Part shown: positions 5,081 to 18,914 of the stretch, piece by piece
How positions within the stretch are numbered: position 1 is the first letter of the stretch
How the letters are laid out: each line of letters starts with the position of its first letter
Assembly: GCA_963665295.1 (NCBI GenBank)
Contig: OY762209.1
Coordinates: forward strand, 1,472,001-1,536,000
DNA length: 64,000 nucleotides
Source: Syntrophorhabdaceae bacterium
Lineage (GTDB): Bacteria; Desulfobacterota; Syntrophorhabdia; Syntrophorhabdales; Syntrophorhabdaceae
Direction of reading: 5' to 3'
Notes under the pieces: generated by a model
Told to the model about the DNA's origin: nothing
Seen by the model: the letters and a program-made list of their open reading frames with translations, nothing else
Databases searched by the model: none
Made by a program: the position numbers and the translations under genes

Positions 5081-5232
5081 TTTCTCCGGGATACGGGTTG
5101 AGACCCTTAATTTTCCGCCCCTTTTGACCGATAATAGAAGGGGGAATCAGTTTCTACAGCTTTCCCTTGCGTATGGCTTCGGGTACAATGCAGGGAAATA
5201 GCGTCTTCTTCAGATCCGAAGGGAGGGTCGTC

Positions 5233-8200
5233 ATGAGAAAAAAGATAGTCTTGAGCCTCGCCTGTTATATGTTCGCCATTCTTCTTGCCTGTGCCTCTTT
5301 TGCAGGCGCCACCATCCTCGTGGTCTCGCCCCACCCGGATGACGACCTGCTTGCCGCCTCGGGTGTGACCCGCCAGGCAGTGGAAAAGGGGGAGCGGGTA
5401 ATCGTGGTTTACGTGACCAACGGCGACATAAATGGTGCTCAGACCGGCTACCAGAGGCAGGCGGAAGCGGTGCAGGGGCAGGCATTCCTGTCGAACGCTG
5501 AGGACAACCTCATTTTTCTCGGGTATCCGGACGCGTATCTTGCGACCCTGTATTCGAACTATCCGGGAAAGAAAGACCAGTTCAAGACACCCCTCGGACA
5601 GTCGGTCACTTACGGCAGCCGGGGTTTGGGCCGTTCGGACTATCACTTTTACAAGTTCGGTTCCCGGGCCGCTTACAACCTGTACAACATGGTCATGGAC
5701 CTGACCCGGATCATCACGGATTACACACCCGACCACATAATCGCACCGAGCCAATTCGATCAGCATGCGGACCATTCCACCACCGCCGCGTTGGTGGGGC
5801 TCGCGGTGACGGCCGCACGGGGGAAGTTGAAGTCTTACTCCCCCACGGTGCACAAGTATGGGATTCACTGGGACAACTGGCCGGAGCCGATGGACCCCGC
5901 GCGCTACTTTACCGAACCCCCGGGACTTGTGAATACCCCGCTCCTCTGGAGCGCGAGGGAGAGTATCGATGTTCCTTCCGCCATGCAGTCCCTCAACCCC
6001 CAGGAAAACTCCAAGTACGTCGCAATCTCCGCCCATGCGACCCAGGGCGGGGCTTCGGGGTGGCTCGGCCGCTTCGTGCACAAGGATGAGGTCTTCTGGA
6101 TCGACACCACCCTGGGAGGCACGAATCATGCGCCCGTAGTGAATGCGGGCCCGGACCAGACAGTGAAACAGGGGGTCCAGGTCACCCTTGACGGCTCGGG
6201 AAGCAAGGACCCCGAAGGTAATACGGTCAAATTTATGTGGACTCAGATTGCGGGCGCCACGGTGAACCTATCGGACCCGACTGCGGCAAAACCCGTATTT
6301 TCCACCCCTACCGGCCTTGTGGCGGGCGATCGGCTGGTCTTCCAATTGGTCGCGAGCGACGGTCAGGCCCAGAGCCTCCGTGATCTCGTGACCGTGGTGG
6401 TGCAGCCCCCCGCGTGTAACAATATCGCCCCCAAAGCCACGGTCATGGCGTCATCGGAAACCCCGGGGACCGGCCAGACCGCGGTGAAAGCCGTGGACGG
6501 CGTGATAGACGGGTATCCCGGAGACTATACCCGGGAGTGGGCTACGGCAGGCCAGCGGAGCGGCGCATGGATCAACCTTACATGGGACGGCCCGTACACG
6601 GTGAACCGGGTAATCCTTTATGACAGGCCGGGTTTGAACGACCAGATTATCGCAGGGACCCTTACCTTCAGCGACGGCACCACCCTCGCGGTGGGGCCTC
6701 TCAACAACGCGGGGTCGGCAACGGATTACATATTCTCCGCAAAGACGATTACGAGTCTCACCCTCACCGTCAATCAGGTGGGAGGCTACACTCTCAACAC
6801 GGGTCTCGCGGAGATAGAGGTATGCGGCCTTGCCCCCGTCATATCAGGGGGGACGGCGTCCAACCGCGCCCCTCAGACGAATGCGGGGTCGGACCAGACA
6901 GTGAGCCAGGGCGCCATAGTCACCCTCGACGGTTCGGGGAGCAAGGACCCCGACGGCAACCCCATCACCTTCGCATGGAAGCAGATCTCGGGCACCACAG
7001 TGCAGCTGTCGAACCCCGCAGCGGTGAACCCCACGTTTACCGCCCCCGCCGGTTCCTCCCTGGACGAGAAACTGGTCTTCGAACTCGTGGCGGACGACGG
7101 GCAGCTCAGGAGCGCCGTGGATTCGGTAACGGTCACTGTGCAGCCTCCGGCAGCGGAATGTTCGAACATCGCAGGCCTTGCAAAGATAATCGCCTCCTCC
7201 GAGTCCCCCGAAGCAGGCCAGGTAGCGCCCAAGGTGGCGGACGGGGTGGTTGACGGGTGGCCCGGAGACTATACCCGCGAGTGGGCCAGTTACGGCCAGG
7301 GGAACGGCGCATGGCTCAACCTGACGTGGAGCGGTGTGTACGCGGTGAACCGGGTGATCCTCTATGACAGGCCGAACCTCGACGACCAGATCCTGGCGGG
7401 CACCATGAGTTTCAGCGACGGCACCAGCGTGGCCGTGGGCCCCCTCAACAACGCAGGGTCTGCCGTGGAATACCGCTTTTCCGATAAATACATTACGAGC
7501 CTTACCCTTGCGGTGAGTCAGGTGAGCGCCGCTACGTTAAACATAGGCCTTGCGGAGATAGAGGTCTGCGGGGTTCAGAATACAGGCGTCGATTATCCTC
7601 CCACGGCGAATGCGGGCTCGGACCAGTCAGTGAAACAGGGGACCCTCGTCACCCTCGACGCCTCGGGGAGCAGGGATCCTGAAGGCAAAGCCCTTTCCTA
7701 CGCCTGGACCCAGACCGGGGGCGCCGCGGTCCAATTGTCGAACCCTACCGCAATGAACCCCACTTTTACCGCTCCTTCGGACCTTCCCCAGGGCGACCGC
7801 CTCACCTTTCAACTGGTGGTGAACGACGGACAACTTCAGAGCGCCGCAGATTCGGCGACGGTGACCGTGGAGGCGACACCGACATGCTCGAACATCACCC
7901 CCCTTGCCATGGTGATGGCCTCCTCGGAAACGCCCGAGTACGGCCAGACCGCGGTCAAAGCGATCGACCTCGTCGTGGACGGCAGCCCGTACGATTATAC
8001 CCGCGAGTGGGTTACGGCGGGACAGGGCGCGGGCGCATGGATCTTCCTGATGTGGAACAAACCCTATAAGGTGAGCCGGGTGACCCTCTATGACAGGCTC
8101 AACACGAACGACCAGATCCTTGGAGGGGTGATAAACTTCAGCGACGGCACGAGCATCCAGGTCGGCCCCCTGAACAACAACGGGGAAGCGACGGAGTACG

Positions 8201-8307
8201 CCTTTCCCGAAAAAAGCATTACCAACATGGCCCTCATCGTAACCCAGGTGAGCGCCACCACCTATAACACGGGGCTCGCCGAAATAGGGGTGTGCGGCAC
8301 ACCCTGA
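5233..8307 (+). CDS. Secreted PIG-L/LmbE family deacetylase with three tandem [PKD/K319L-like Ig + discoidin/CBM-like] modules
   Basis: ATG 5233 after GGGAGG; signal peptide; SPHPDDD and DQHADH metal motifs; three copies of NAGxDQTV...LDGSGSKDP...CxNIA...ASSE...DGxPGDYTREW...EIEVCG. Confidence 0.88.
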   Translation: MRKKIVLSLACYMFAILLACASFAGATILVVSPHPDDDLLAASGVTRQAVEKGERVIVVYVTNGDINGAQTGYQRQAEAVQGQAFLSNAEDNLIFLGYPDAYLATLYSNYPGKKDQFKTPLGQSVTYGSRGLGRSDYHFYKFGSRAAYNLYNMVMDLTRIITDYTPDHIIAPSQFDQHADHSTTAALVGLAVTAARGKLKSYSPTVHKYGIHWDNWPEPMDPARYFTEPPGLVNTPLLWSARESIDVPSAMQSLNPQENSKYVAISAHATQGGASGWLGRFVHKDEVFWIDTTLGGTNHAPVVNAGPDQTVKQGVQVTLDGSGSKDPEGNTVKFMWTQIAGATVNLSDPTAAKPVFSTPTGLVAGDRLVFQLVASDGQAQSLRDLVTVVVQPPACNNIAPKATVMASSETPGTGQTAVKAVDGVIDGYPGDYTREWATAGQRSGAWINLTWDGPYTVNRVILYDRPGLNDQIIAGTLTFSDGTTLAVGPLNNAGSATDYIFSAKTITSLTLTVNQVGGYTLNTGLAEIEVCGLAPVISGGTASNRAPQTNAGSDQTVSQGAIVTLDGSGSKDPDGNPITFAWKQISGTTVQLSNPAAVNPTFTAPAGSSLDEKLVFELVADDGQLRSAVDSVTVTVQPPAAECSNIAGLAKIIASSESPEAGQVAPKVADGVVDGWPGDYTREWASYGQGNGAWLNLTWSGVYAVNRVILYDRPNLDDQILAGTMSFSDGTSVAVGPLNNAGSAVEYRFSDKYITSLTLAVSQVSAATLNIGLAEIEVCGVQNTGVDYPPTANAGSDQSVKQGTLVTLDASGSRDPEGKALSYAWTQTGGAAVQLSNPTAMNPTFTAPSDLPQGDRLTFQLVVNDGQLQSAADSATVTVEATPTCSNITPLAMVMASSETPEYGQTAVKAIDLVVDGSPYDYTREWVTAGQGAGAWIFLMWNKPYKVSRVTLYDRLNTNDQILGGVINFSDGTSIQVGPLNNNGEATEYAFPEKSITNMALIVTQVSATTYNTGLAEIGVCGTP
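6124..8304 (+). repeat. Three intragenic repeats of about 710 bp (approx. 6124-6828, 6862-7572, 7591-8304)
   Basis: Direct similarity at both protein and DNA level between the modules. Confidence 0.9.
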
Positions 8308-8370: not shown

Positions 8371-11300
8371 TCAGGACGGCCTTCTTCCGTCGCCGTTTTT
8401 CCTTCCGAACCTCACATAGAGCGAGGGCACCACGATCATGTTGAGGGCGGTGGAACTCAGGAGCCCCCCGAGGATCACAATAGCGAGGGGAGAAAGTATT
8501 TCATTGCCCGGTTTGTGCGAGCCCAGGGCAAAAGGGACGAGGGCGAGACCGGCGGCCAGTGCCGTCATGACCACGGGCCGGAGCCGTTCCATGGACCCCT
8601 TGCATACCGCCTCTTTGATGTCCAGGCGCTCCTCTTCGAGAAGATGAAGATAATGGGACACGAGAAGAATCCCGTTTCTCGTGGCGATGCCGAAGAGGGT
8701 GATGAAACCGACGATAGAGGCGATGCTGATGACCCTGTCGGTAAAGAGGATGATAACGATCCCCCCTATGAGGGCGAGGGGCAGGTTCACCATTACGAGC
8801 ACCGATGTCCTCAAGGACCTGAACTCCATGTAAAGAATGAGGAATATGGCGAGGAGGGAGACGATGCTCAAAAGCCCTATGGTCTTCGACGCCTCCGCCT
8901 CGCTCTGGAACTGTCCCCCGTACTCGATGAAGTACCCGGGAGGGAGGACGAGATTAGCGGTGATGCGGGATTTCACGTCATCGAAGACACCCCTCAAATC
9001 TCTGCCGGAGACGTTTGCCTGGACCACCATCTTTCTCTGCACATTTTCCCTGCTTATGCTGTTGGGGCCCTTGGCGGAATAGATGTCGGCAAGGGCCGAG
9101 AGGGGCACTTTTGCCCCGCCGGGGACATCAATGAGGGTGGAGCGTACGCTCTCCACGTCCTTTTTCGCGCTGTCATCGAACTTCACGATAATATCGAAGC
9201 CCCTGTCCCCTTCCAGTGTCCTGGAGACCACCTTTCCGAACATGGCCGCCTCTACGGCCTCGGCCACCTGCACCACGGACAGGCCGTATCTGGCAAGTTC
9301 CGACCTCTTCGGCACGACGCGCAGTTGGGGGATGTCCACCTGCTGCTCCACCGACAGGTCCGCCACACCCCCGACCCGGCTCATCTCGTACCGCACGTCC
9401 TCGGCGATGGCCCTCAGCCTGAAGAGTTCCCTGCCGAATATCTTCACCGCAATGTTCCCCGTTGATCCTGAGAGCATGTGGTCGATCCTGTGACTGATGG
9501 GCTGGCCGAAGGCTATGACCGTGCCGGGGATGGAGGCCACGGATTTTCGCAGTTCCGTGAGCACGTCCTGGAGCCGCCTTCCTTTCATGTCGAGTCTCAC
9601 CTCGATCTCCGAGGCGTTGGCGGGTTTTCCGTGTTCATCGAGTTCGCCTCTGCCCGTCTTCCGGAGCGTCTGTTTTACGTTGGGATGCCGTTTCAGGGCG
9701 AGTTCTATGAGGGTGCCTATTTCAGACGACTTTTCGAGGGACGTTCCGGGCGCGGTGGCGACCAGCACGGTCAGGGACCCTTCGTTGAAGGCGGGCAGGA
9801 ACGACCTCCCTATAAAAAGAAGGGGTATGAGAGAGGCCGCAAAGACCAGGGCCGCAGAGAGGATGACGAGGTTCGGTTTCCTTACAGCGAAGTCAAGGAC
9901 CGGCCGGTACAGCGCCTTGAGGCCCGTAACGAGCCTCCCTTCACCCCCCGCATCGAGGAACCTGCCCTTGTGGAGCAGATAGGAGCACATGGCGGGCGTG
10001 ACCGTGAGGGCGACCACGAGGGAAGCGGCGATGGAGACCATGTAGGATGTGCCGAGGGGTCTCAAGAGCCGCCCTTCTATACCGCTCAGGAAGAAGAGAG
10101 GCACAAACACGACGATGATGATCAAAGTGGCGTTGATGATGGGTCCCCTGATTTCGGAGGAAGCCTCGAAGATCACCTCTCCCGTGGGAAATCTCTCATG
10201 CCCGGCTTTGAGATGGTTCTCCTTCATCCGCCTGAATACGTTTTCCACGTAGATGATGGCGTCATCCACGATTACCCCCACGGCTATGGCCATGCCTCCC
10301 AGGGTCATGGTGTTGATGGTCACATCAAAATACTTCAGCACGAGGAGGGCGAATATGAGGGAGAGGGGCATGGCGGTCATGGAGATGACCGTCGCCCTCA
10401 GGTTTCCGAGAAAGAGGAGGATTATGGCGATCACGAGGACGCCGCCCTCCACCACCACCCGGAGCACGTTGGATATGGACCTCTCTATGAAGTCCGCCTG
10501 CCTGAAGACGTCCGTATCCATCACCATTCCCCTGGGGAGCGTCTTCTCCATCTCTTTCAAGGTGGTCTGAAGCCTTTTGGTCAGTTCCACCGTATTCGTG
10601 TCGGGGTGCTTCAGTATGGCAAGGGTGACGGCGGGCTTGCCGTCCACCGAAGAATCGCCGAACCTGAATGCAGGGGCGGCCTTGACCGCGGCGAGGTCCC
10701 TTACGAGCACGGGGATGCCGTCCCGGGTCGCCACTACCGAGGCCTCTAAGTCCCCAACGGACTTCACCCTTCCAATGCCCCTTATGAGGTAGTCCCGGCT
10801 GCCCGATTTCATGACACCGGCGGAAAAGTTTTCGTTCGATCCCTTTACCGCGGTGAGGACGTCGTTCAGGGCCAGGTTAAAGGCCGCAAGCCCGCGGGGG
10901 TCGACGAGGACCTGGTACTGCTTTGTCTCGCCGCCCACATTCACCACCTGAGACACGCCGGGTATGGAGAGAAGCCTCCTTCGCACCACGAAATCGGCCG
11001 TCTCCTTTACCTCCATGAGGGGATGGCGCTCGCTTCTCAGGCCGATGTACATGATCTCGCCCATGATGGAGGAAATGGGAGCAAGGACGGGCATGGTGCC
11101 TGCGGGAAGCGCGCCTGCAACGAGTTGCAGCTTCTCGTTCACCACCTGGCGGGCCCGGTAGATATCGGTGCCCCAGGCAAACTCGACGTATATGGTGGAC
11201 ATGCCCACCGCGGAGGTGGAACGGACCCGGCGCACCCCCGTGGCCCCGTTCATGGCGCTCTCTATGGGGAAGGTGACTACCGTCTCCACCTCTTCCGGCG

Positions 11301-11469
11301 CCATCCCGTGGGCGTCCGTCATGATGGTGACTGTGGGGGCGGTGAGGTCGGGAAAGACGTCGACCTTCATGTTCATGGCCGCATACCCTCCCGCCACAAG
11401 GAGGGCGAGGGATGCCGCCACGATTATCAGCCTGTTTCTTATGCAGAACTTTGTGAGGTTATCGAGCAT
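8371..11469 (-). CDS. CusA/CzcA family heavy-metal efflux RND permease
   Basis: VDVFPDLTAPTV, GMAPEEVE, TLGGMAIAVGVIVDDAIIYVEN, ERLRPVVMTA motifs; start reassigned to ATG 11469 (GGAG SD). Confidence 0.95.
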   Translation of the reverse strand: MLDNLTKFCIRNRLIIVAASLALLVAGGYAAMNMKVDVFPDLTAPTVTIMTDAHGMAPEEVETVVTFPIESAMNGATGVRRVRSTSAVGMSTIYVEFAWGTDIYRARQVVNEKLQLVAGALPAGTMPVLAPISSIMGEIMYIGLRSERHPLMEVKETADFVVRRRLLSIPGVSQVVNVGGETKQYQVLVDPRGLAAFNLALNDVLTAVKGSNENFSAGVMKSGSRDYLIRGIGRVKSVGDLEASVVATRDGIPVLVRDLAAVKAAPAFRFGDSSVDGKPAVTLAILKHPDTNTVELTKRLQTTLKEMEKTLPRGMVMDTDVFRQADFIERSISNVLRVVVEGGVLVIAIILLFLGNLRATVISMTAMPLSLIFALLVLKYFDVTINTMTLGGMAIAVGVIVDDAIIYVENVFRRMKENHLKAGHERFPTGEVIFEASSEIRGPIINATLIIIVVFVPLFFLSGIEGRLLRPLGTSYMVSIAASLVVALTVTPAMCSYLLHKGRFLDAGGEGRLVTGLKALYRPVLDFAVRKPNLVILSAALVFAASLIPLLFIGRSFLPAFNEGSLTVLVATAPGTSLEKSSEIGTLIELALKRHPNVKQTLRKTGRGELDEHGKPANASEIEVRLDMKGRRLQDVLTELRKSVASIPGTVIAFGQPISHRIDHMLSGSTGNIAVKIFGRELFRLRAIAEDVRYEMSRVGGVADLSVEQQVDIPQLRVVPKRSELARYGLSVVQVAEAVEAAMFGKVVSRTLEGDRGFDIIVKFDDSAKKDVESVRSTLIDVPGGAKVPLSALADIYSAKGPNSISRENVQRKMVVQANVSGRDLRGVFDDVKSRITANLVLPPGYFIEYGGQFQSEAEASKTIGLLSIVSLLAIFLILYMEFRSLRTSVLVMVNLPLALIGGIVIILFTDRVISIASIVGFITLFGIATRNGILLVSHYLHLLEEERLDIKEAVCKGSMERLRPVVMTALAAGLALVPFALGSHKPGNEILSPLAIVILGGLLSSTALNMIVVPSLYVRFGRKNGDGRRPS

Positions 11470-11485: not shown

Positions 11486-12997
11486 TCAGTGTCCGTGCCC
11501 GTCGCCCTGGGGCGCCTTCGACGACTGAGATGCAAGCCTTACGTAATAAGCGCCTTTTGTCACGACCCGCTCGCCTTCTTTCAACCCTTCCGTGACTTCA
11601 ACGAGGCCTCCGCCCCTGATGCCTGTCTTTATCTCTCTCCTCTCGAAAGAAACGCCCTCCGTCTGGACAAAGACGAAGAACTTGCCTTCGTCCTCGAGCA
11701 CGGCCTCTTCGGGGAGGGTCAATCCCTCCTTCTCGCTGCCCGTCTTTATGGACACGTCGGCGAACATGCCCGCTTTGAGGAGCCCTTTTCTGTTGTCCAC
11801 ATCGAAGATGGCCGCCACGGTCCTCGTTTTCGCGTCCACTATATCATTTATCGCTACGAGCCTGACAGGCTTGAAGGAGCCGTCCATACCGGCCACGGTA
11901 AAGGTAGCCTCACGGAGTTTCCCGAGCCTCCCCGTTTCCGTGGCGGGTATATTGGCCTTGAGCCGGAGGGTCGAGGTGTTGATGATCTTCACGAGCGCCT
12001 GTCCGACCTCCACAGCCTTCCCGTTTGAGGCAAATACCTCGACCACCGTGCCGCTCAAGGGCGATTTCACGGTTATTCCCCGGTCGGAGGTTTTGCCCTT
12101 CATGGTGTTCATTGCCTGTTCCAGGGGATCGAGGGCGGCTTTCGCGCTGTCGAGGGCGAGGTCCGCCTCGTCAACCCTCCTTTTAGCCACGGCCTTTGCC
12201 TCGTAAAGCCTCTTTGCCCGCTCCGATTCCTTTAAAGCCAGGCTGTGCCTGTTCTTCGCCTCCGCATAGGCCGAGGTCAACTGGCCTATGCCTCCCTGCT
12301 GATACACGGGCGGGTCGATCACGGCGACCACATCGCCTGCGGCCACCTTTTTCCCCACGTGAGGAAGGCTTCTCGAAACGGAGAGTATGCCCGCGAGGGG
12401 CGCCGACAGGGTAACCTCGCGGTCGGACACGGTCACAAGCTCTCCCGGTGATATAAAGGACGACGAAAGAGGCCTCCTTGCAGGAGATTCGGTCCGGAAA
12501 TCGACCATCCACTGCTGTTCCTTGGAGAAGGCGATGGCGGCCTTCGCACTGTGACCGTGATGTTCCTCCTCTTCCTTCCCCGTGTCGCCCATGACGGAGA
12601 TGTTGTCTATGCGTATCTCATCGGAGAAGGCCTGCCCCGCATAGGCGACCTTCAGTGTGTACTTGCCCTGTTTCCTGAAGGGCACTTCGGTCACGAACAT
12701 GCCCGGTCTCACGGGGGCGTCCAATTTTATCGTCAATGGTTCGCCCCCATCGGGCGTAAAGGTCAGGGTGAGGACACCCGCCTCCGGGGGCTTGAAATCC
12801 TTTAGAGCCGTGATATAGACCATAAAATCCGTCTTGCGGCCCTTCCTGGGCTCATCGTACTCGACAAGGAACTCAGCCTTTCCTGTCCAGACCGTCTGCT
12901 TCTCCGTTTCGCCCTTGTGGATATCCGCTTCCCCCGCCTTGTGGGAACATGCGCCGAGGAGCATGAGGAGCACTACCGGCAACACGAGATATTTCAT
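11486..12997 (-). CDS. RND efflux periplasmic adaptor subunit (CzcB/CusB-like), lipoprotein
   Basis: LLGAC lipobox, His patches (EEEEHHGH, GDGHGH), SPLSGTV, LKAGMFA, GLKEGERVVTKG. Confidence 0.92.
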   Translation of the reverse strand: MKYLVLPVVLLMLLGACSHKAGEADIHKGETEKQTVWTGKAEFLVEYDEPRKGRKTDFMVYITALKDFKPPEAGVLTLTFTPDGGEPLTIKLDAPVRPGMFVTEVPFRKQGKYTLKVAYAGQAFSDEIRIDNISVMGDTGKEEEEHHGHSAKAAIAFSKEQQWMVDFRTESPARRPLSSSFISPGELVTVSDREVTLSAPLAGILSVSRSLPHVGKKVAAGDVVAVIDPPVYQQGGIGQLTSAYAEAKNRHSLALKESERAKRLYEAKAVAKRRVDEADLALDSAKAALDPLEQAMNTMKGKTSDRGITVKSPLSGTVVEVFASNGKAVEVGQALVKIINTSTLRLKANIPATETGRLGKLREATFTVAGMDGSFKPVRLVAINDIVDAKTRTVAAIFDVDNRKGLLKAGMFADVSIKTGSEKEGLTLPEEAVLEDEGKFFVFVQTEGVSFERREIKTGIRGGGLVEVTEGLKEGERVVTKGAYYVRLASQSSKAPQGDGHGH

Positions 12998-14217
12998 CTT
13001 TCACCTTCCCTCGTCAGTTTGATGCCGACGGCCCTTTCCGTCTCGAAAAGGGTTGCCCAGTATTCATAGAGGGTATTGTTGTATTCCATGAGCAGTTCCT
13101 TCTCCGAGCGGACCGTGTCGAGGAGATCGATGAGGCCCATCTCCCCTTCTTCGTAAGCAATGCGTGCAATCTTTGTGATCTCCCTGGTGGAGTCGAGCTG
13201 CCCCCTCACTTCCCCAAGCCGCGTCTGGAGGTAGGACATCCTCTCCTGGAGGATGGCGATCTCGCTTGCCGCCTGTTTTTTGAGGAACTCGTAATTGAGC
13301 TTCTGCTTATCCCGTTCCGCCGTGGCAAAAGCTATCTTCCCCTGGTTCCTGTCGAATACGGGCAGAGGGACGGCAAGGCCGAATACGAACCCGTCGAACC
13401 CGCCCGCCCACCTCTTGTAGCCCGCCTCGACCCCTATAAGCGGGAAGGCCTCACGCCGGGAGAGGGACAGGGACGCATCCGCCGCATTGACGAGGGTAGA
13501 CTGACCCTTGATATCGGCCCTCCTGTCGATCGCTTTCTCCGCGGCTTCCCTGAGTTCCGGTGGAGGGGGCCTGTATTCGAAAGCGCCGTGCAACACGAAC
13601 TCGCTGTCCGGCAGGTTCAGCATGAGGGCGAGTTTTTTCCTTTCGCCCTTCAGGTCCGTCCTGAACCCGGCCAGGGCCCTGGTGAATTTCCTCTTCTCCG
13701 AAGAGAGCCTCAGGAGTTCTCCTTCCGAAGCGTCCCCTGCCTTGACCCGGGCGGAGGTCCTCCGCTCCGATTCTTCCGCCATTTCTATGATGCCTTCCAG
13801 GGCCTTCATGTTTTCCATGATGAGGAGGTTCCTGTAATAGAGCTGCTTCATTTGAGAGACCATGCCCACCGCGCCGTACTCGAAGAAGAGGGTCTGGGCC
13901 TCTTTTCGTTTCTCGGCGGTTTCGATCCTCTTTGCCCTTTTACCGGCGAAGTCTACGGGTTGTATCACCGTATAGGTGACCTCTTTGTCGTTCTGACCGC
14001 TCGACACGCTTTCGTAGACATACCTCGCTTCAGGGTTGGGCAGGAGCCGCGAACCTACGACCTCCGCCTCGGCCTGGGTCAGGTCCTTTCTTCTCATGCG
14101 GATCTCCATGTTGTTCTCGAGCAGCATCTTTTCGGCCTCCTCCACAGTGAGGGCGAAGCCCGGGCAGGGGAGCTCGATCGCCGTAAGCAGGAGAAGAAGA
14201 ATGAATATAATGCGCAT
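12994..14217 (-). CDS. TolC family outer membrane efflux protein (CzcC-like)
   Basis: LLPNP, VPLPVFDRNQG, AYEEGEMGLIDLLD motifs; operon position; AGGAGG SD. Confidence 0.92.
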   Translation of the reverse strand: MRIIFILLLLLTAIELPCPGFALTVEEAEKMLLENNMEIRMRRKDLTQAEAEVVGSRLLPNPEARYVYESVSSGQNDKEVTYTVIQPVDFAGKRAKRIETAEKRKEAQTLFFEYGAVGMVSQMKQLYYRNLLIMENMKALEGIIEMAEESERRTSARVKAGDASEGELLRLSSEKRKFTRALAGFRTDLKGERKKLALMLNLPDSEFVLHGAFEYRPPPPELREAAEKAIDRRADIKGQSTLVNAADASLSLSRREAFPLIGVEAGYKRWAGGFDGFVFGLAVPLPVFDRNQGKIAFATAERDKQKLNYEFLKKQAASEIAILQERMSYLQTRLGEVRGQLDSTREITKIARIAYEEGEMGLIDLLDTVRSEKELLMEYNNTLYEYWATLFETERAVGIKLTREGER

Positions 14218-14300
14218 GCGCCTTCCTCCTTGGTTGAATCGGGACAGTCGGAGCCGGTCTTTTTACAGACGCCCCGCTGTTGTGGGACTATGACGCGCTT

Positions 14301-14720
14301 CTAGGATAGAGGAGGAGAAAGGCCGGAATGGCGTAAAGAAAAGAACCCGTGAGGCTTCAGGGGAGATTCCCCGGAAACGGGAAAGACTGTTGCTGCGGTG
14401 TCGGGCATCCCCTCGTCCCCCGGGGTGATCGCGTAACAGGGGAGGGTCGGCAGCAGGTTCACATATGATTTATGGACCGCATTGTCTTCGTCTATAAGGA
14501 ATCGGACATCGTGAAGGTGATACGGCCTGCCGCTTCCTTCGAGAACCTCTTCACGCGGGTCCTCCCGGAAAAGGGCGGCTCGGCCCGCAGGCTCTGCCCC
14601 ATCACAGGGGCCTCTTCCCGCTGCCCCCGCCTCCGTGTGGCAGTGAAGGAAAGGCAGCAGCCCCGCGATCAGGAGGTAGAGGAGAAAGGGGACCACGTAT
14701 TTGCGACGATTAATACACAT
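14301..14720 (-). CDS. CzcI/DUF2946-like leader protein upstream of the metal efflux operon
   Basis: N-terminal hydrophobic segment followed by HCH, internal HLHD, C-terminal RHSGLSPPLS; sits directly before the czcC-like gene. Confidence 0.65.
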   Translation of the reverse strand: MCINRRKYVVPFLLYLLIAGLLPFLHCHTEAGAAGRGPCDGAEPAGRAALFREDPREEVLEGSGRPYHLHDVRFLIDEDNAVHKSYVNLLPTLPCYAITPGDEGMPDTAATVFPVSGESPLKPHGFFSLRHSGLSPPLS

Positions 14721-14728
14721 GGTAGATG

Positions 14729-14757
14729 ATTATAATGCGGAATCTCCGCAAAGGCAA
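14729..14757 (-). promoter_or_regulatory. Sigma70 promoter of the efflux operon with a palindromic operator in the spacer
   Basis: TTGCCT-17-TATAAT; TGCGGA-N3-TCCGCA at 14736-14750. Confidence 0.65.
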
Positions 14758-14825: not shown

Positions 14826-15809
14826 CTAGGGGGTATTCCGGGCCTCAAAGAGGTTAAGCTTTGCCGACAGCAACTCGTCACATGCGGAATAGGGGTCCTT
14901 GGCGCCTGCGATGATGAGGTCCACGCATCTTTTGAATTCGGGACTGCCTGTTATGTGGTGCAATGCCTCCTCGATGAGCCTGCTTTTGATCATGTCCGCC
15001 AGTTCAAGGCGGGCCGCTGCTTTCTTATGACGGATCATGGTCTCGTAAGGCAAGGCCTTCCTGTTCGTGCGGTGTTTCTCGATCTCATTCAGCAGCCCGG
15101 CGGTGCCTTTGTCGGTCGCCGCCTCGGTCATAAGCACAGGCGGCTCCCAATCCTGACCGGCGGACCTCTTCCTTGCGATATGGAACATTGCCTTCAGATC
15201 GTTCAGGGTTCTTTGGGCATCGGGACGGTCTGATTTGTTGATAACGAAGATGTCCCCCGCTTCGAGGATTCCGGCCTTGATGGCCTGGATATGGTCACCC
15301 ATGCCCGGCACTACGACAACCACCGTGACATGGGCGCTTTTGACGATATCGACTTCATCCTGGCCTACCCCTACCGTCTCGACAATGATGTAGTCCTTTC
15401 CCATGGCATCCATTACATCGATCGCCGAGTGCGTGGATTGAGTGAGCCCTCCGAACTGGCCCCGCGTCGCGAGGGAACGGACAAACACGCCTTGGTCCAG
15501 GCTATGGCGCTGCATGCGGATACGGTCCCCCAATATCGCCCCTCCGCTGAAGGGGCTGGTGGGATCAACCGCGAGGACGCCCGCTGTTTTCCCGCTCTCC
15601 CTCAAATTTTGGATCATCCGGTCCACCAACGTGCTCTTGCCGACGCCGGGGGCGCCCGTGATCCCGATTACATAAGCTTTACCCGTATGCCTGTGCAGGG
15701 CCTTGAGGATTTCCCTTGTGCCCGGAGCCCCGTCGTCGATGTCACGGATCAACCTCGCCGCAGCTCTCACGTCGCCATCGACGATTCTTTCAACGATACC
15801 GTCGATCAT
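14826..15809 (-). CDS. meaB: Methylmalonyl-CoA mutase-associated GTPase MeaB/ArgK
   Basis: GITGAPGVGKST, AVDPTSPFSGGAILGDRIRM, ETVGVGQDE, NKSD. Confidence 0.95.
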   Translation of the reverse strand: MIDGIVERIVDGDVRAAARLIRDIDDGAPGTREILKALHRHTGKAYVIGITGAPGVGKSTLVDRMIQNLRESGKTAGVLAVDPTSPFSGGAILGDRIRMQRHSLDQGVFVRSLATRGQFGGLTQSTHSAIDVMDAMGKDYIIVETVGVGQDEVDIVKSAHVTVVVVVPGMGDHIQAIKAGILEAGDIFVINKSDRPDAQRTLNDLKAMFHIARKRSAGQDWEPPVLMTEAATDKGTAGLLNEIEKHRTNRKALPYETMIRHKKAAARLELADMIKSRLIEEALHHITGSPEFKRCVDLIIAGAKDPYSACDELLSAKLNLFEARNTP

Positions 15810-15812
15810 GCC

Positions 15813-16211
15813 CTATCTCTTCACGGACGAAACTATGTAGTCTACGATCGATTCCGAAGTGCTCTGAGGGGGAAAAATCCTCGATACGCCCCTTTCCCGC
15901 AAGGCCTCGGCATATTGCCTGGGGATGGCCCCCCCGCAAATCACGGGAACATCATCCAGGTCATTTTTCTTCATCAGGTCCAGCAGGATGCCTATCTGTT
16001 CGTAGTTGGAGGCGTGGCTGCTTATGCCGATCACGTCCACGCTCTCCTGGATAGCCGCGCTGACGATCATCTCGGGCGTCTGATAGATGCCGAGATATAC
16101 CACTTCCATCCCGGCGTCCATGAGAAACCTCGACACGATTTCCGCGCCCGTGAAGTGTCCGTCAAGGCCGATAACCGAGATGAGAACCTTAATTCGTTGC
16201 CTGTTGCTCAT
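15813..16211 (-). CDS. Cobalamin-binding small subunit of an acyl-CoA mutase
   Basis: GLDGHFTG (DxHxxG), GMEVVYLG, QTPE, CGGAIP. Confidence 0.92.
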   Translation of the reverse strand: MSNRQRIKVLISVIGLDGHFTGAEIVSRFLMDAGMEVVYLGIYQTPEMIVSAAIQESVDVIGISSHASNYEQIGILLDLMKKNDLDDVPVICGGAIPRQYAEALRERGVSRIFPPQSTSESIVDYIVSSVKR

Positions 16212-16262
16212 GGTGATATTCCTCCTGTCTCAAGAAATGCTCTCCCTTCCCCCTTTGCGCCC

Positions 16263-17879
16263 TTACAGATCGAAAGGGCAATCGATCATCTCCAGCGGGT
16301 CATAATGAAACCCGTGGGCCTTCCGGATGACACCCATTATCTCTCCGGCGGTGCCATAAGCCTTGACCGCCTCTATAATGGACGGCATGAGGTTGCAGCT
16401 CCCGTCCCTTGTTGCATCGGCATGAAGCCGTGCAATCTTCTCTTTCAACAAGGGCATATCTCTTGTCTTCTTCCAATCCTCCATCCGTTTCGCTATCTCT
16501 TCGCAATCGGATGTCTCCACGGACTGAATGGGGATATCGTCATCTTCCTCGGGAGGGATTACCAGTTCGTTCACCCCCACGATCAGACGCTCTCCCGATT
16601 CTATCTCCTTTTGCCGCTTCCGGGCCGACTCTTCCATCATATTGTGGATATAGCCTTTTTTCACCGCCGCGATCATGCCGCCCTGATCTTCTATCTCTTT
16701 GAGGATCTTGTATGCTTCCGCTTCGATATTGTTGGTGAGATACTCCACGTAATAGGAGCCTGCGAGAGGGTCCGTCACATCCGTCACTCCTGTTTCGTCG
16801 GAGACGATGTGCTGGGTGTTCAGGGACATCCTCGCCGCGAAAGGGGACGGCTCCGCGTGGGCATTGTCCAGGCACGCGTTGTCAATCGCGGTGCACCCCG
16901 CAATAGCTCCCGCCAGGGTTTGTATGGCGCATCGCGCGATGTTGTTGAGAGGCTGCTGATAGGTCATGGTCCGTCCCGACGTATGGACGGATATGAGAAG
17001 CTGGCATGCCTTTTCGGTTTTGGCCTTGAATACCTCTTTCGCCATCTTCGCATACATCCTCCGGAGGGCGCGGACTTTGGCTATTTCTTCGAAGAACCGG
17101 GAGCCCACGCTTACGAGTTCGTAGGGGAGAAGGCCCACGTCATCGAAATCAAGGCCCCGCTCATTGACCAGCAGTCCGAGCAGTTCTTTGAGCTGAGCCA
17201 TCTCCACGGCCAGCGCCTGTGCGTTATTTCCGCCCGACTCCTGAAAGTGCTGGCTGAGAATGCCGCAGCGCATATGTATTCTATTCCTTATGATGTATTC
17301 CGAGGAATCCATCCAGAGTTTGATATTGAGGTCCAAAGGGAGATTGTCCCCCTGCCCGAAGGTGTGGCAGAAAGGATATTCCGTCACGCTGCCGTGCACT
17401 TCCTCTAAGTCAATACCTCGCTTTTCCGCCAGGGCAACAACATAGGCCAGCCGTATGGCGGACATGGCAGCGGAACCGAGAAGGGTAATAGACTGTCCGG
17501 TCAGGGGAATGCCGTCCATGAGCTCCTCGAATTCCAGGAGCGACGCTCCATGCCAACCCAGAACCCCCGCCTCTCTTCTGCCCACGGGATGATCGGCGTC
17601 TATGGGCATCGCATTGGGCCTGTCGCAGATGACGAGCATCCCCTGTGTCTGACCCATTGCCCGGTACTGTTTAAGGGCTTCGTTGGTTCTTTTGGAAGAC
17701 CCGAGCCCGGCGGTCATTCTCCTTGTCCACACGCGGCTGCGGTAGCCTTCCGGATGATAACCCCGGACATAGGGATAGAATCCGGGGTCCCCCACATCCT
17801 TCGCATAATCCAAACCTGCAATGTCTTCGGGGGTGTATACGGGCCGAATCTCGTATCCGTAATCTGTTTCTCTTTTCAT
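16263..17879 (-). CDS. Acyl-CoA mutase large (substrate-binding) subunit, methylmalonyl-CoA mutase family, divergent
   Basis: PGFYPYVRG, FFEEIAKVRALRR, QQPLNNIAR, DPLAGSYYVEYLT, IVGVN; start reassigned to ATG 17879 (GGAGG SD). Confidence 0.92.
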   Translation of the reverse strand: MKRETDYGYEIRPVYTPEDIAGLDYAKDVGDPGFYPYVRGYHPEGYRSRVWTRRMTAGLGSSKRTNEALKQYRAMGQTQGMLVICDRPNAMPIDADHPVGRREAGVLGWHGASLLEFEELMDGIPLTGQSITLLGSAAMSAIRLAYVVALAEKRGIDLEEVHGSVTEYPFCHTFGQGDNLPLDLNIKLWMDSSEYIIRNRIHMRCGILSQHFQESGGNNAQALAVEMAQLKELLGLLVNERGLDFDDVGLLPYELVSVGSRFFEEIAKVRALRRMYAKMAKEVFKAKTEKACQLLISVHTSGRTMTYQQPLNNIARCAIQTLAGAIAGCTAIDNACLDNAHAEPSPFAARMSLNTQHIVSDETGVTDVTDPLAGSYYVEYLTNNIEAEAYKILKEIEDQGGMIAAVKKGYIHNMMEESARKRQKEIESGERLIVGVNELVIPPEEDDDIPIQSVETSDCEEIAKRMEDWKKTRDMPLLKEKIARLHADATRDGSCNLMPSIIEAVKAYGTAGEIMGVIRKAHGFHYDPLEMIDCPFDL

Positions 17880-18079
17880 TTTGCCTCCATAACCTGAAAA
17901 AGTCTTAAATAGACCGGATCGGACATCCCGAGCATGGTTAAGGCGGCACCCATCAAGGCATGCGCCCGGTTTGCGCCCGACACGCACACAGGGCCGGCGA
18001 CAACCGCACGAGTCTCTTTGCCTGATTCCCATGACGATTCGAGTAAATATTCCGGTTTCATCCCGTCTCAATGATAAAG

Positions 18080-18142
18080 CCAACCGGTTGGGTTAATCCG
18101 ACCGGTTGGATTACTGTAGCACCATGAATATCATCGTGTCAA
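18080..18142 (-). promoter_or_regulatory. Promoter of the mutase operon with two tandem palindromic operators
   Basis: Minus strand TTGACA-18-TACAGT (extended TG); palindromes CCAACCGGTTGG (18080-18091) and TAATCCGACCGGTTGGATTA (18094-18113). Confidence 0.7.
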
Positions 18143-18469: not shown

Positions 18470-18611
18470 TCACTAATTGACGAAACAAGAGATTTGGCCG
18501 GCAAGGTGTCAATGCCGACAGAAGTACGGTCTTAAAGAGTGTGCTGGGCAAGAAGTCCTGTAGAGTGTCTCCGGCGTGCTCTAAAAGAAGACTGCGCCGA
18601 GGGAGGGCAAC

Positions 18612-18914
18612 ATGGGAAGAATGTGGGGGTTGGAAAGCGGAGGTGTTGTAGGCGGCAAGGCCATGGAGGATATGCTCATAGAGGTATTCGGCTGCGTTTC
18701 CCTGAACAGCAGGGTAATAAGGCTCGAGCCGGGCAGGGACAAGCTATGGTTCAGAACCGACGCCGCGGTCAGTGAACACGTTATGGAGGATATGCTCATA
18801 GAGGTATTCGGCTGCGTTTCGCTGAACAACAGGGTAATAAGGCTCGAATCAGGCAGGGACAAGCTGCGGCGCCCGAGCGGACTCAGGGCGGACGCGGTAG
18901 CCTGTACCGCATGA
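18612..18914 (+). CDS. 100-aa hypothetical protein with a duplicated 28-aa motif
   Basis: GGGAGG SD; MEDMLIEVFGCVSLN(S/N)RVIRLE(P/S)GRDKL occurs twice; differences between copies are mostly at third codon positions. Confidence 0.6.
   Translation: MGRMWGLESGGVVGGKAMEDMLIEVFGCVSLNSRVIRLEPGRDKLWFRTDAAVSEHVMEDMLIEVFGCVSLNNRVIRLESGRDKLRRPSGLRADAVACTA
18663..18865 (+). repeat. Direct repeat, 2 x 83 bp with 120-bp period
   Basis: 18663-18745 vs 18783-18865, 5 mismatches. Confidence 0.95.

Follow-up and report, generated by a model that had tools for sequence, protein, structure and literature searches.

A leader ORF at the head of a heavy-metal efflux operon

We analysed a stretch of 64,000 nucleotides (hereafter, the window) from a Syntrophorhabdaceae bacterium (assembly GCA_963665295.1, contig OY762209.1). 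On its reverse strand, a 139-aa open reading frame (ORF), here called the leader, precedes the genes for an outer-membrane efflux protein (OEP), a periplasmic adaptor and a transporter of the resistance-nodulation-division (RND) type, in this order (Table 1). The transporter exceeds the TIGR00914 cut-off and is accompanied by an OEP and an adaptor, which identifies the operon as one of the CusA/CzcA heavy-metal RND type. The original prediction, made from the DNA letters alone, had described the 139-aa ORF, its HCH (residues 26-28) and HLHD (residues 68-71) motifs, its C-terminal RHSGLSPPLS and a gap of 83 nt before the OEP gene (start at 14217). All of them were found where it had placed them, and the profile searches recognised its efflux operon.

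The boundary of that prediction, at 14757, coincides with the first base of the -35 box of a sigma70-like promoter (10/12 matches; shuffle mean 0.3), which it had not included. As the -10 box ends 8 nt 5' of the leader ATG, the operon mRNA would begin at this ATG or close to it, making the leader near-leaderless. No intrinsic terminator was found on the coding strand, no Rfam match at the locus and no leader paralogue in the source genome, in which the rho and EF-P genes are both present. Contigs overlapping the locus agree without differences where they cover it, and may be the source of this sequence.

Table 1. Features of the leader and efflux operon (positions in the window)
Feature	Position	Strand	Remarks
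Leader ORF	14301..14720	-	139 aa; His-type clade of the SGLSPP family; no Pfam or NCBIfam match
OEP (CzcC/CusC-like)	12994..14217	-	407 aa; PF02321, E 1e-26
RND periplasmic adaptor (CzcB-like)	11486..12997	-	503 aa; short His stretches; TIGR01730 above cut-off, TIGR00999 below cut-off
CusA/CzcA-family heavy-metal RND transporter	8371..11469	-	1032 aa; TIGR00914, 811 bits (cut-off 701)
Sigma70-like promoter	14729..14757	-	-35 TTGCCT (14757-14752), 17 nt, -10 TATAAT (14734-14729)
Hydrophobic signal/anchor helix	14643..14696	-	Residues 9-26; sole confident AlphaFold structure
P-x-x-H-C-H motif	14637..14645	-	From the 44-sequence alignment
HLHDVRFL	14496..14519	-	Degenerate copy of the family HHxHFL element; F74 lies 62 aa before Pro136
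SGLSPP, candidate arrest motif	14310..14327	-	Two codons before the stop
Anti-Shine-Dalgarno arm GCCUUUCUCCU	14313..14323	-	Inside the motif codons; starts at base 2 of the Gly codon and ends with the first Pro codon
Shine-Dalgarno arm AGGAGGAAGGC of the OEP gene	14220..14230	-	Pairs with the anti-Shine-Dalgarno arm
Second, weaker anti-Shine-Dalgarno	14189..14199	-	Early OEP codons; hairpin of -9.3 kcal/mol predicted when the leader codons are covered
Intergenic hairpin	14244..14280	-	-18.9 kcal/mol; within the loop of the long-range helix; no U-tail; sequence not conserved
C>G-skewed stretch, candidate Rho-loading site	14283..14360	-	C-G = 0.19, top 1.8% of 327 control gene ends; partly forced by the amino acids of the motif

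The leader belongs to a conserved family ending in SGLSPP

A search with the OEP in 61 related genomes returned three orthologues (53-58% identity). Each of them is preceded by a leader of ~142-143 aa ending in FSGLSPPxx* (asterisk, stop codon), and the motif had not been used to find them. Genome G412 yielded a fifth leader of this type, and a CusA/CzcA RND transporter above the cut-off is present in the operons of all four relatives. Another OEP-based search for related loci gave three distant loci, none with such a leader. A profile of the five leaders then retrieved 39 representatives at E<=0.001, plus nine matches in the 90% database.

The resulting 44 homologues, aligned with a mean column identity of 22%, share a hydrophobic N-terminus, P-x-x-H-[CS]-H, CCELH, HHxHFL and SGLSPP. 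In the last motif the Gly and both Pro residues are conserved in 44/44 sequences, Leu in 42/44, Ser135 in 41/44 and Ser132 in 39/44; two residues follow PP in 33/44. The distance from F74 to the first Pro is 60-64 residues in all 44. These motif and spacing counts are partly built in, because the search profile contained the motif and penalises gaps. With this reservation, the conservation of GLSPP among homologues that the original prediction called for was observed.

The N-terminus of the leader combines a basic N-region with a hydrophobic helix at residues 9-26 (from sequence and AlphaFold, without a SignalP prediction). The pLDDT was 96 for residues 11-20 and 51-72 outside the helix, pTM was 0.25, and AlphaFold predicted no folded domain. 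In P-x-x-H-C-H, which probably falls in the c-region of the signal, H26 is found in 44/44 and H28 in 42/44 homologues, and the intervening residue is Cys in 30/44 and Ser in 8/44. We also considered a lipobox at Cys27, and rejected it because of this Ser in eight homologues. The HLHD that the original prediction took as a metal ligand is not itself the conserved element: the family has CCELH and HHxHFL, degraded in the window copy to EEVLE and HDVRFL.

The leader family had no match in Pfam or NCBIfam. ESM Atlas returned unnamed clusters at 0.96, with DUF6769 at rank 5 (135/256 shared features), which is a lead only. Judged from its sequence, the leader is a real, conserved gene of an undescribed family.

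We then collected loci with DNA pattern scans for [FHYL]SGLSPPxx*, two of which also required GGAG 50-80 nt downstream. Together with the earlier loci, these gave at least 212 distinct motif-plus-stop matches in 327 loci. Among the matches listed, to which all the following counts refer, 52 were kept by a filter on length and hydrophobicity. With truncated members added by hand, and minus those lacking a clear downstream start, 56 loci remained, or 46 without near-duplicates. The p-values obtained on them overstate significance, because the loci are related, not independent, and were gathered by motif patterns. The named records are mostly from Nitrospirota and Deltaproteobacteria/Thermodesulfobacteriota.

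Coherently with a start at the very beginning of the mRNA, no Shine-Dalgarno (SD) sequence was found before any of the 37 leaders with an assignable ATG. A -10 box of the form TAnnnT (>=4/6 matches) ends 3-16 nt before the ATG in 26/37, compared with 8/46 control starts of downstream genes.

Downstream genes and the His-poor clade

The genes downstream of the 46 leaders (45 of which were submitted to Pfam annotation) encode an OEP in 14 loci, an OmpA/Pal-type protein in 14, a spermidine-synthase-like protein with a signal-like N-terminus in eight and other proteins in ten (M23, SH3, alanine zipper, cytochrome c7, CBS, DUF6488 and four without a Pfam match).

The leaders directly upstream of OmpA/Pal-type lipoprotein genes (L039, L044, L058, L069, L070, L077, L110, L113, L114, L143, L144, L191, L228, L245) form a His-poor sister clade. 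They carry YAxSP after the hydrophobic segment, LLKKxRA and the terminal SGLSPPxx*, with FLxKKxRA in place of the HFLxD of the efflux clade. Their spacing to PP is similar (58-62 residues in 19/20). Homology between the two clades extends over their length (HHalign probability 98.6, E 7e-16), and the profile of the Pal-linked clade recovers two efflux leaders. The Pal-linked leader is a candidate monitor of the envelope.

The eight leaders upstream of the ~305-aa spermidine-synthase-like protein (L080, L093, L117, L141, L150, L164, L221, L265) are His-rich; in L080 and L141 the next gene encodes the membrane half of an MFS/spermidine synthase that is split. Three further SGLSPP leaders (L081, L092, L146) precede a ~405-aa protein with no Pfam match and no obvious signal peptide, and their targets are an exception to the envelope-target pattern. 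Other, metal-related transporter genes stand beside some efflux loci: a divergent CDF transporter (L331:8656-9678, + strand), a GDT1 antiporter (L072:539-1219, +) and an EamA transporter whose long tail is rich in His (L328:3483-4451, +).

A strong predicted helix over the SD of the OEP gene

The original prediction had proposed that the GLSPP codons act as an anti-SD for the OEP gene. The two arms form 11 contiguous pairs, one of them U-G, and the folding that it suggested as a check returned this helix as both the minimum free energy and the centroid structure of 14345-14190. The pairing probability between the SD and the motif codons was 0.84 in the local fold and 0.93 in the whole leader mRNA. 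The z-score of the whole 14345-14190 segment was just -1.72, with 14/200 shuffles as stable.

As controls, 327 co-directional gene pairs were called in the source genome by a simple ORF heuristic. In equal windows, one of them matches the duplex of the locus (-18.5 kcal/mol), and five do when the last 45 nt are used. Among 300 synonymous recodings, this duplex stands at percentile 0.002. Placing a model ribosome on the motif makes the initiation site cheaper to open: the cost falls from 15.6 to 9.4, i.e. by 6.1 kcal/mol, compared with -0.4 after synonymous recoding. By prediction, and at this locus only, an SD-sequestering stem of the SecM/CutF type would overlap the footprint of a stalled ribosome.

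Conservation of the helix in the family is not supported

Codon usage in the motif is biased. The first Pro codon is CCT in 29/46 loci, against a background of 26-36% and 24/123 chance matches (33.5% for the first Pro of PP in the source genome). The Leu codon is CTY in 41/46 and the Gly codon GGY in 39/46; the scan patterns allowed only CTN for Leu and TCN for Ser. On this codon evidence, the synonymous sites of the motif are constrained and U/C-biased family-wide. The SD is paired with the last ten leader codons (P>0.5) in 22/46 loci, compared with 10.5 expected after recoding and 10/200 control gene pairs, and the signal is strongest in the OmpA/Pal-linked clade. The 11-pair register reaches 72% pairing in 13 efflux loci, above slid registers (42-65%).

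Several results weigh against the helix as a shared mechanism. It is absent in the three closest orthologues (P = 0.04, 0.00 and 0.00) and exceeds P>0.5 in just 5/14 efflux loci (p = 0.09 against recoding). The motif pairs no better with its own SD than with that of another locus (p = 0.18; efflux loci, 0.83). The covariation that the original prediction expected between anti-SD and SD was not found in the 13 efflux loci, where 436/500 shuffles reach the observed score, nor in a shifted CCUCC:GGAGG register, and RNAalifold gave no consensus pairs. The gain in opening has a median of 2.0 kcal/mol over the 46 loci and 1.1 in efflux loci, and reaches 2 kcal/mol in just 23/46 and 5/14, respectively. 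Also at this locus, blocking the motif is predicted to leave the SD in another hairpin, formed with early OEP codons (-9.3 kcal/mol).

Local pairing is strong, and neither conservation nor covariation was found: the family as a whole shows a weak, generic tendency to pair, above which the helix of this locus stands out as unusually good. The anti-SD of the original prediction thus holds as a predicted structure of the window copy but not as a trait shared with its closest relatives.

Proposed mechanism and alternatives

The ORF, its conservation, the spacing of its motifs, its promoter-first position, the operon context and the predicted helix are directly supported; we infer export, stalling, the direction of control and the metal cue. 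We consider it likely that the leader is a cis-acting stalling leader. Its translation would begin right where the operon mRNA begins, its N-terminal segment would direct co-translational export, and the ribosome would pause at SGLSPP, two codons before the stop. The duration of the pause would be set by the fate of the FL/His element ~62 residues upstream. By then this element would have left the ribosome and reached the periplasmic face of the translocon, since ~62 residues exceed the ~30 + 17 needed to span tunnel and membrane (PMC9973294). The held ribosome would cover the U/C-rich motif codons and, at this locus, open the 11-bp helix over the SD, raising OEP translation. In this position it would also hide a C-rich Rho site, an effect that may be more important in other family members. 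For the efflux clade the likeliest cue would be a periplasmic divalent metal bound by His/Cys, giving more pump with metal. The full reading, with the anti-SD output at this locus and the metal cue, we hold to be somewhat more probable than not.

The Arg that RAPP motifs require is not a feature of this family. No other residue can take its place in RAP(P) arrest motifs (PMC12992588), so that stalling in the RAPP fashion should not be taken for granted for LSPP; an EF-P-sensitive proline pause as in CutF, or a new chemistry via the invariant Gly/Leu, would be needed. The metal cue is in turn weakened by the window copy, which lacks CCELH and has the three His of HHxHFL placed differently, and by the targets: His-rich members also precede the spermidine-synthase-like gene, and His-poor members precede Pal/OmpA genes.

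A stalled leader could act differently, as in CruR: the ribosome would mask a C-rich rut site and so keep Rho from terminating transcription ahead of the efflux genes. Rho would then be what the pyrimidine bias was selected for, and the anti-SD helix would be a side effect of codons rich in C/U facing an SD rich in purines. Over the first 30 non-coding nt behind the leader stop, C outnumbers G in 38/46 loci (mean +0.12). The corresponding value is -0.04 for the 327 control gene ends and -0.05 after the downstream genes of these loci (paired n = 39; a control weakened where downstream genes abut the next SD). C>G is also found before the motif in 35/46 loci. Together with the lack of covariation between motif and SD, the presence of rho in the source genome and the C>G bubble with rare CCT Pro codons of CruR (PMC9426467), this family-wide skew speaks for Rho. 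At the window locus, however, the skew is clear across the ORF end and weak after the stop (0.03, percentile 0.36), a stable hairpin occupies the gap, and pairing over the SD is of unusual strength. Moreover, the first Pro codon, being CCT rather than CCC (7/46), gives CCUCC, while a rut site would favour CCC. For this locus we regard control through Rho as rather unlikely.

We find it improbable that the leader stalls but reports on export or envelope state, like SecM/VemP, with the FL element being pulled on and the His residues incidental or ancestral. The homologous clade with FLxKKxRA, few His and like spacing, which precedes OmpA/Pal (14 loci), M23, SH3 and alanine-zipper genes, fits this possibility, as does the loss of CCELH in the window copy; but the His/Cys clusters are strongly kept in the clade heading heavy-metal RND operons, and CDF and GDT1 transporters neighbour two efflux loci. 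An alternative without translational control, in which the ORF encodes a small secreted accessory protein that binds metal and acts in trans, would account for the signal-like N-terminus, the His motifs and the first place in a metal-efflux operon, which is also that of CzcI, a protein whose C-terminus has no proline motif (PMC9973294). Such a protein would not be expected to lack a predicted folded domain, to confine its conservation to motifs at a fixed distance from the terminal PP, to show synonymous constraint at the motif or to share its tail with leaders of unrelated genes, and we deem this account improbable as well.

Returning to the stalling leader, a more general proposal can be tentatively made, and it may well prove too broad. 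SGLSPP would be an Arg-free arrest motif defining modular, near-leaderless exported leaders of Nitrospirota and Desulfobacterota, in which one scaffold carries a His/Cys sensor before metal pumps and KKxRA before Pal/OmpA and other envelope genes. As part of the same tentative proposal, this scaffold would consist of a signal, a ruler element ~60 aa before PP, and arrest codons doubling as anti-SD or rut.

Other leader-like ORFs and neighbouring genes

Conserved leaders of a different kind, ~95 aa long (xLTVE/LTIE ... RGPP/RAPP), are found in this bacterial order upstream of a different OEP group (L005, L006, L008, L010, L012, L015, L016, L018, L019, L025), and L009 has a YKPP-type leader. In the source genome we also noted seven more leader-like ORFs with a hydrophobic N-terminus and a C-terminal RAPP, RGPP or YKPP (G000:C1, 5365201-5365587(+), 2380221-2380562(+), 3288789-3289091(-), 3277263-3277547(-), 720147-720503(-), 3912569-3912868(-) and 240521-241060(-)). 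The genes next to them are of OEP, RND adaptor or metal-binding lipoprotein types, as judged by eye, and none of the seven ORFs reached the DUF2946 cut-off.

Directly upstream of the operon, window positions 14826-18083 (-) encode a methylmalonyl-CoA mutase large subunit, a B12-binding subunit and a MeaB GTPase. A cobalt/B12 link between these genes and the pump is possible; the neighbourhood is not kept in L002-L004. In a 1046-aa protein encoded at 5167-8307 (+), three PKD/DUF7402 repeats come after a PIG-L deacetylase domain. At 18581-18914, short ORFs on both strands contain an internal repeat of ~30 residues, which suggests a tandem duplication of the DNA.

Comparison with known systems

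The original prediction had classed the leader as a CruR/CutF-type variant. What holds of this is an exported-type upstream ORF (uORF) with a non-RAPP SPP motif; membership of DUF2946 does not. No member of the family matched DUF2946 (PF11162) at E<=0.1 (0/44), the window protein had no match at E<=1, and the locus is not among the five weak DUF2946 matches of the source genome. Instead of a CXXC/CxxxC ~45 aa before the arrest motif, the family has HxH, CCELH and HHxHFL, the last of them 60-64 aa before PP, and the Arg position of a C-terminal RAPP is Leu in 42/44 and Arg in 1/44. The leader does conform to the size, PP and gap rules used to describe CutF-like ORFs (<150 aa, PP in the last 15 residues, co-directional gene within <=1000 nt; PMC9973294), with 139 aa, PP at 136-137 and a gap of 83 nt. 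Probably, then, it works like CutF/CruR and yet lies outside the DUF2946 and RAPP-like definitions, as a member of an undescribed family with a candidate arrest motif.

We found no description of a GLSPP leader family in the literature searched, in which supplements were covered in part and further tables could hold members. GLSPP is not among the arrest motifs named in the available parts of PMC10987492 and PMC12992588 and had no match in the PMC10987492 supplements searched; it has three matches in a table of PMC12992588, of which at least two are incidental to RAPP proteins. The leader resembles the RAPP-like (RQH, ApdA/ApdP, SecM) and non-RAPP (uA_LPPP, uA_NSP-stop) arrest proteins in being a short, putatively secretory protein with a C-terminal xxPP and diverse downstream genes, and non-Arg arrest motifs such as LPPP exist (PMC10987492; PMC12992588). 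CzcI of Cupriavidus metallidurans, compared by description only, is likewise a small ORF directly upstream of czcCBA but has no C-terminal proline motif (PMC9973294).

With CruR (Bp2923, DUF2946) of Bordetella pertussis the leader shares the position of a uORF heading a metal-transport operon, a motif 2-3 residues before the stop, a fixed spacing between sensor and arrest motif (CXXC-RAPP in CruR) and a C>G-rich 3' end with CCT Pro codons (PMC9426467). CruR, however, has CXXC and RAPP, represses an importer through Rho and can dispense with its signal peptide (PMC9426467), whereas the leader has neither Arg nor CXXC and targets an exporter.

CutF of Rhodobacter capsulatus (cutFOG; DUF2946) is similar in being a small first ORF that is exported (putatively so in the leader), with putative metal ligands and a C-terminal proline motif (PMC9973294), and a stem over the downstream SD (PMC9973294; bioRxiv 10.1101/2025.02.05.636593). 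Its own motif, EPEGPPPRL, also lacks RAPP, and RND outer-membrane factors are the commonest targets downstream of CutF-like ORFs (PMC9973294). The leader differs from it in having no DUF2946 match and no conserved CxxxC, in a ligand-to-PP distance of ~62 aa rather than 45, in SGLSPP rather than PPP, and in an anti-SD placed in its own arrest codons rather than in an intergenic stem-loop. Moreover, His-only CutF-like clusters precede HupE/UreJ, not RND pumps (PMC9973294).

Exported leader, proline stall, SD or Rho output and RND target are thus already known from CutF/CruR, and the surprise is limited because these show the overall design. If SGLSPP stalls ribosomes, a non-Arg arrest chemistry would be added where the Arg of RAPP is irreplaceable. 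In that case the two homologous clades would offer a natural comparison of different sensor segments and targets; under the tentative proposal above, the Pal/OmpA-linked version would possibly be the first nascent-chain monitor of outer-membrane or cell-wall state. Nascent-chain sensing would then also cover divalent-metal efflux, and perhaps envelope proteins, in two phyla that have been little studied.

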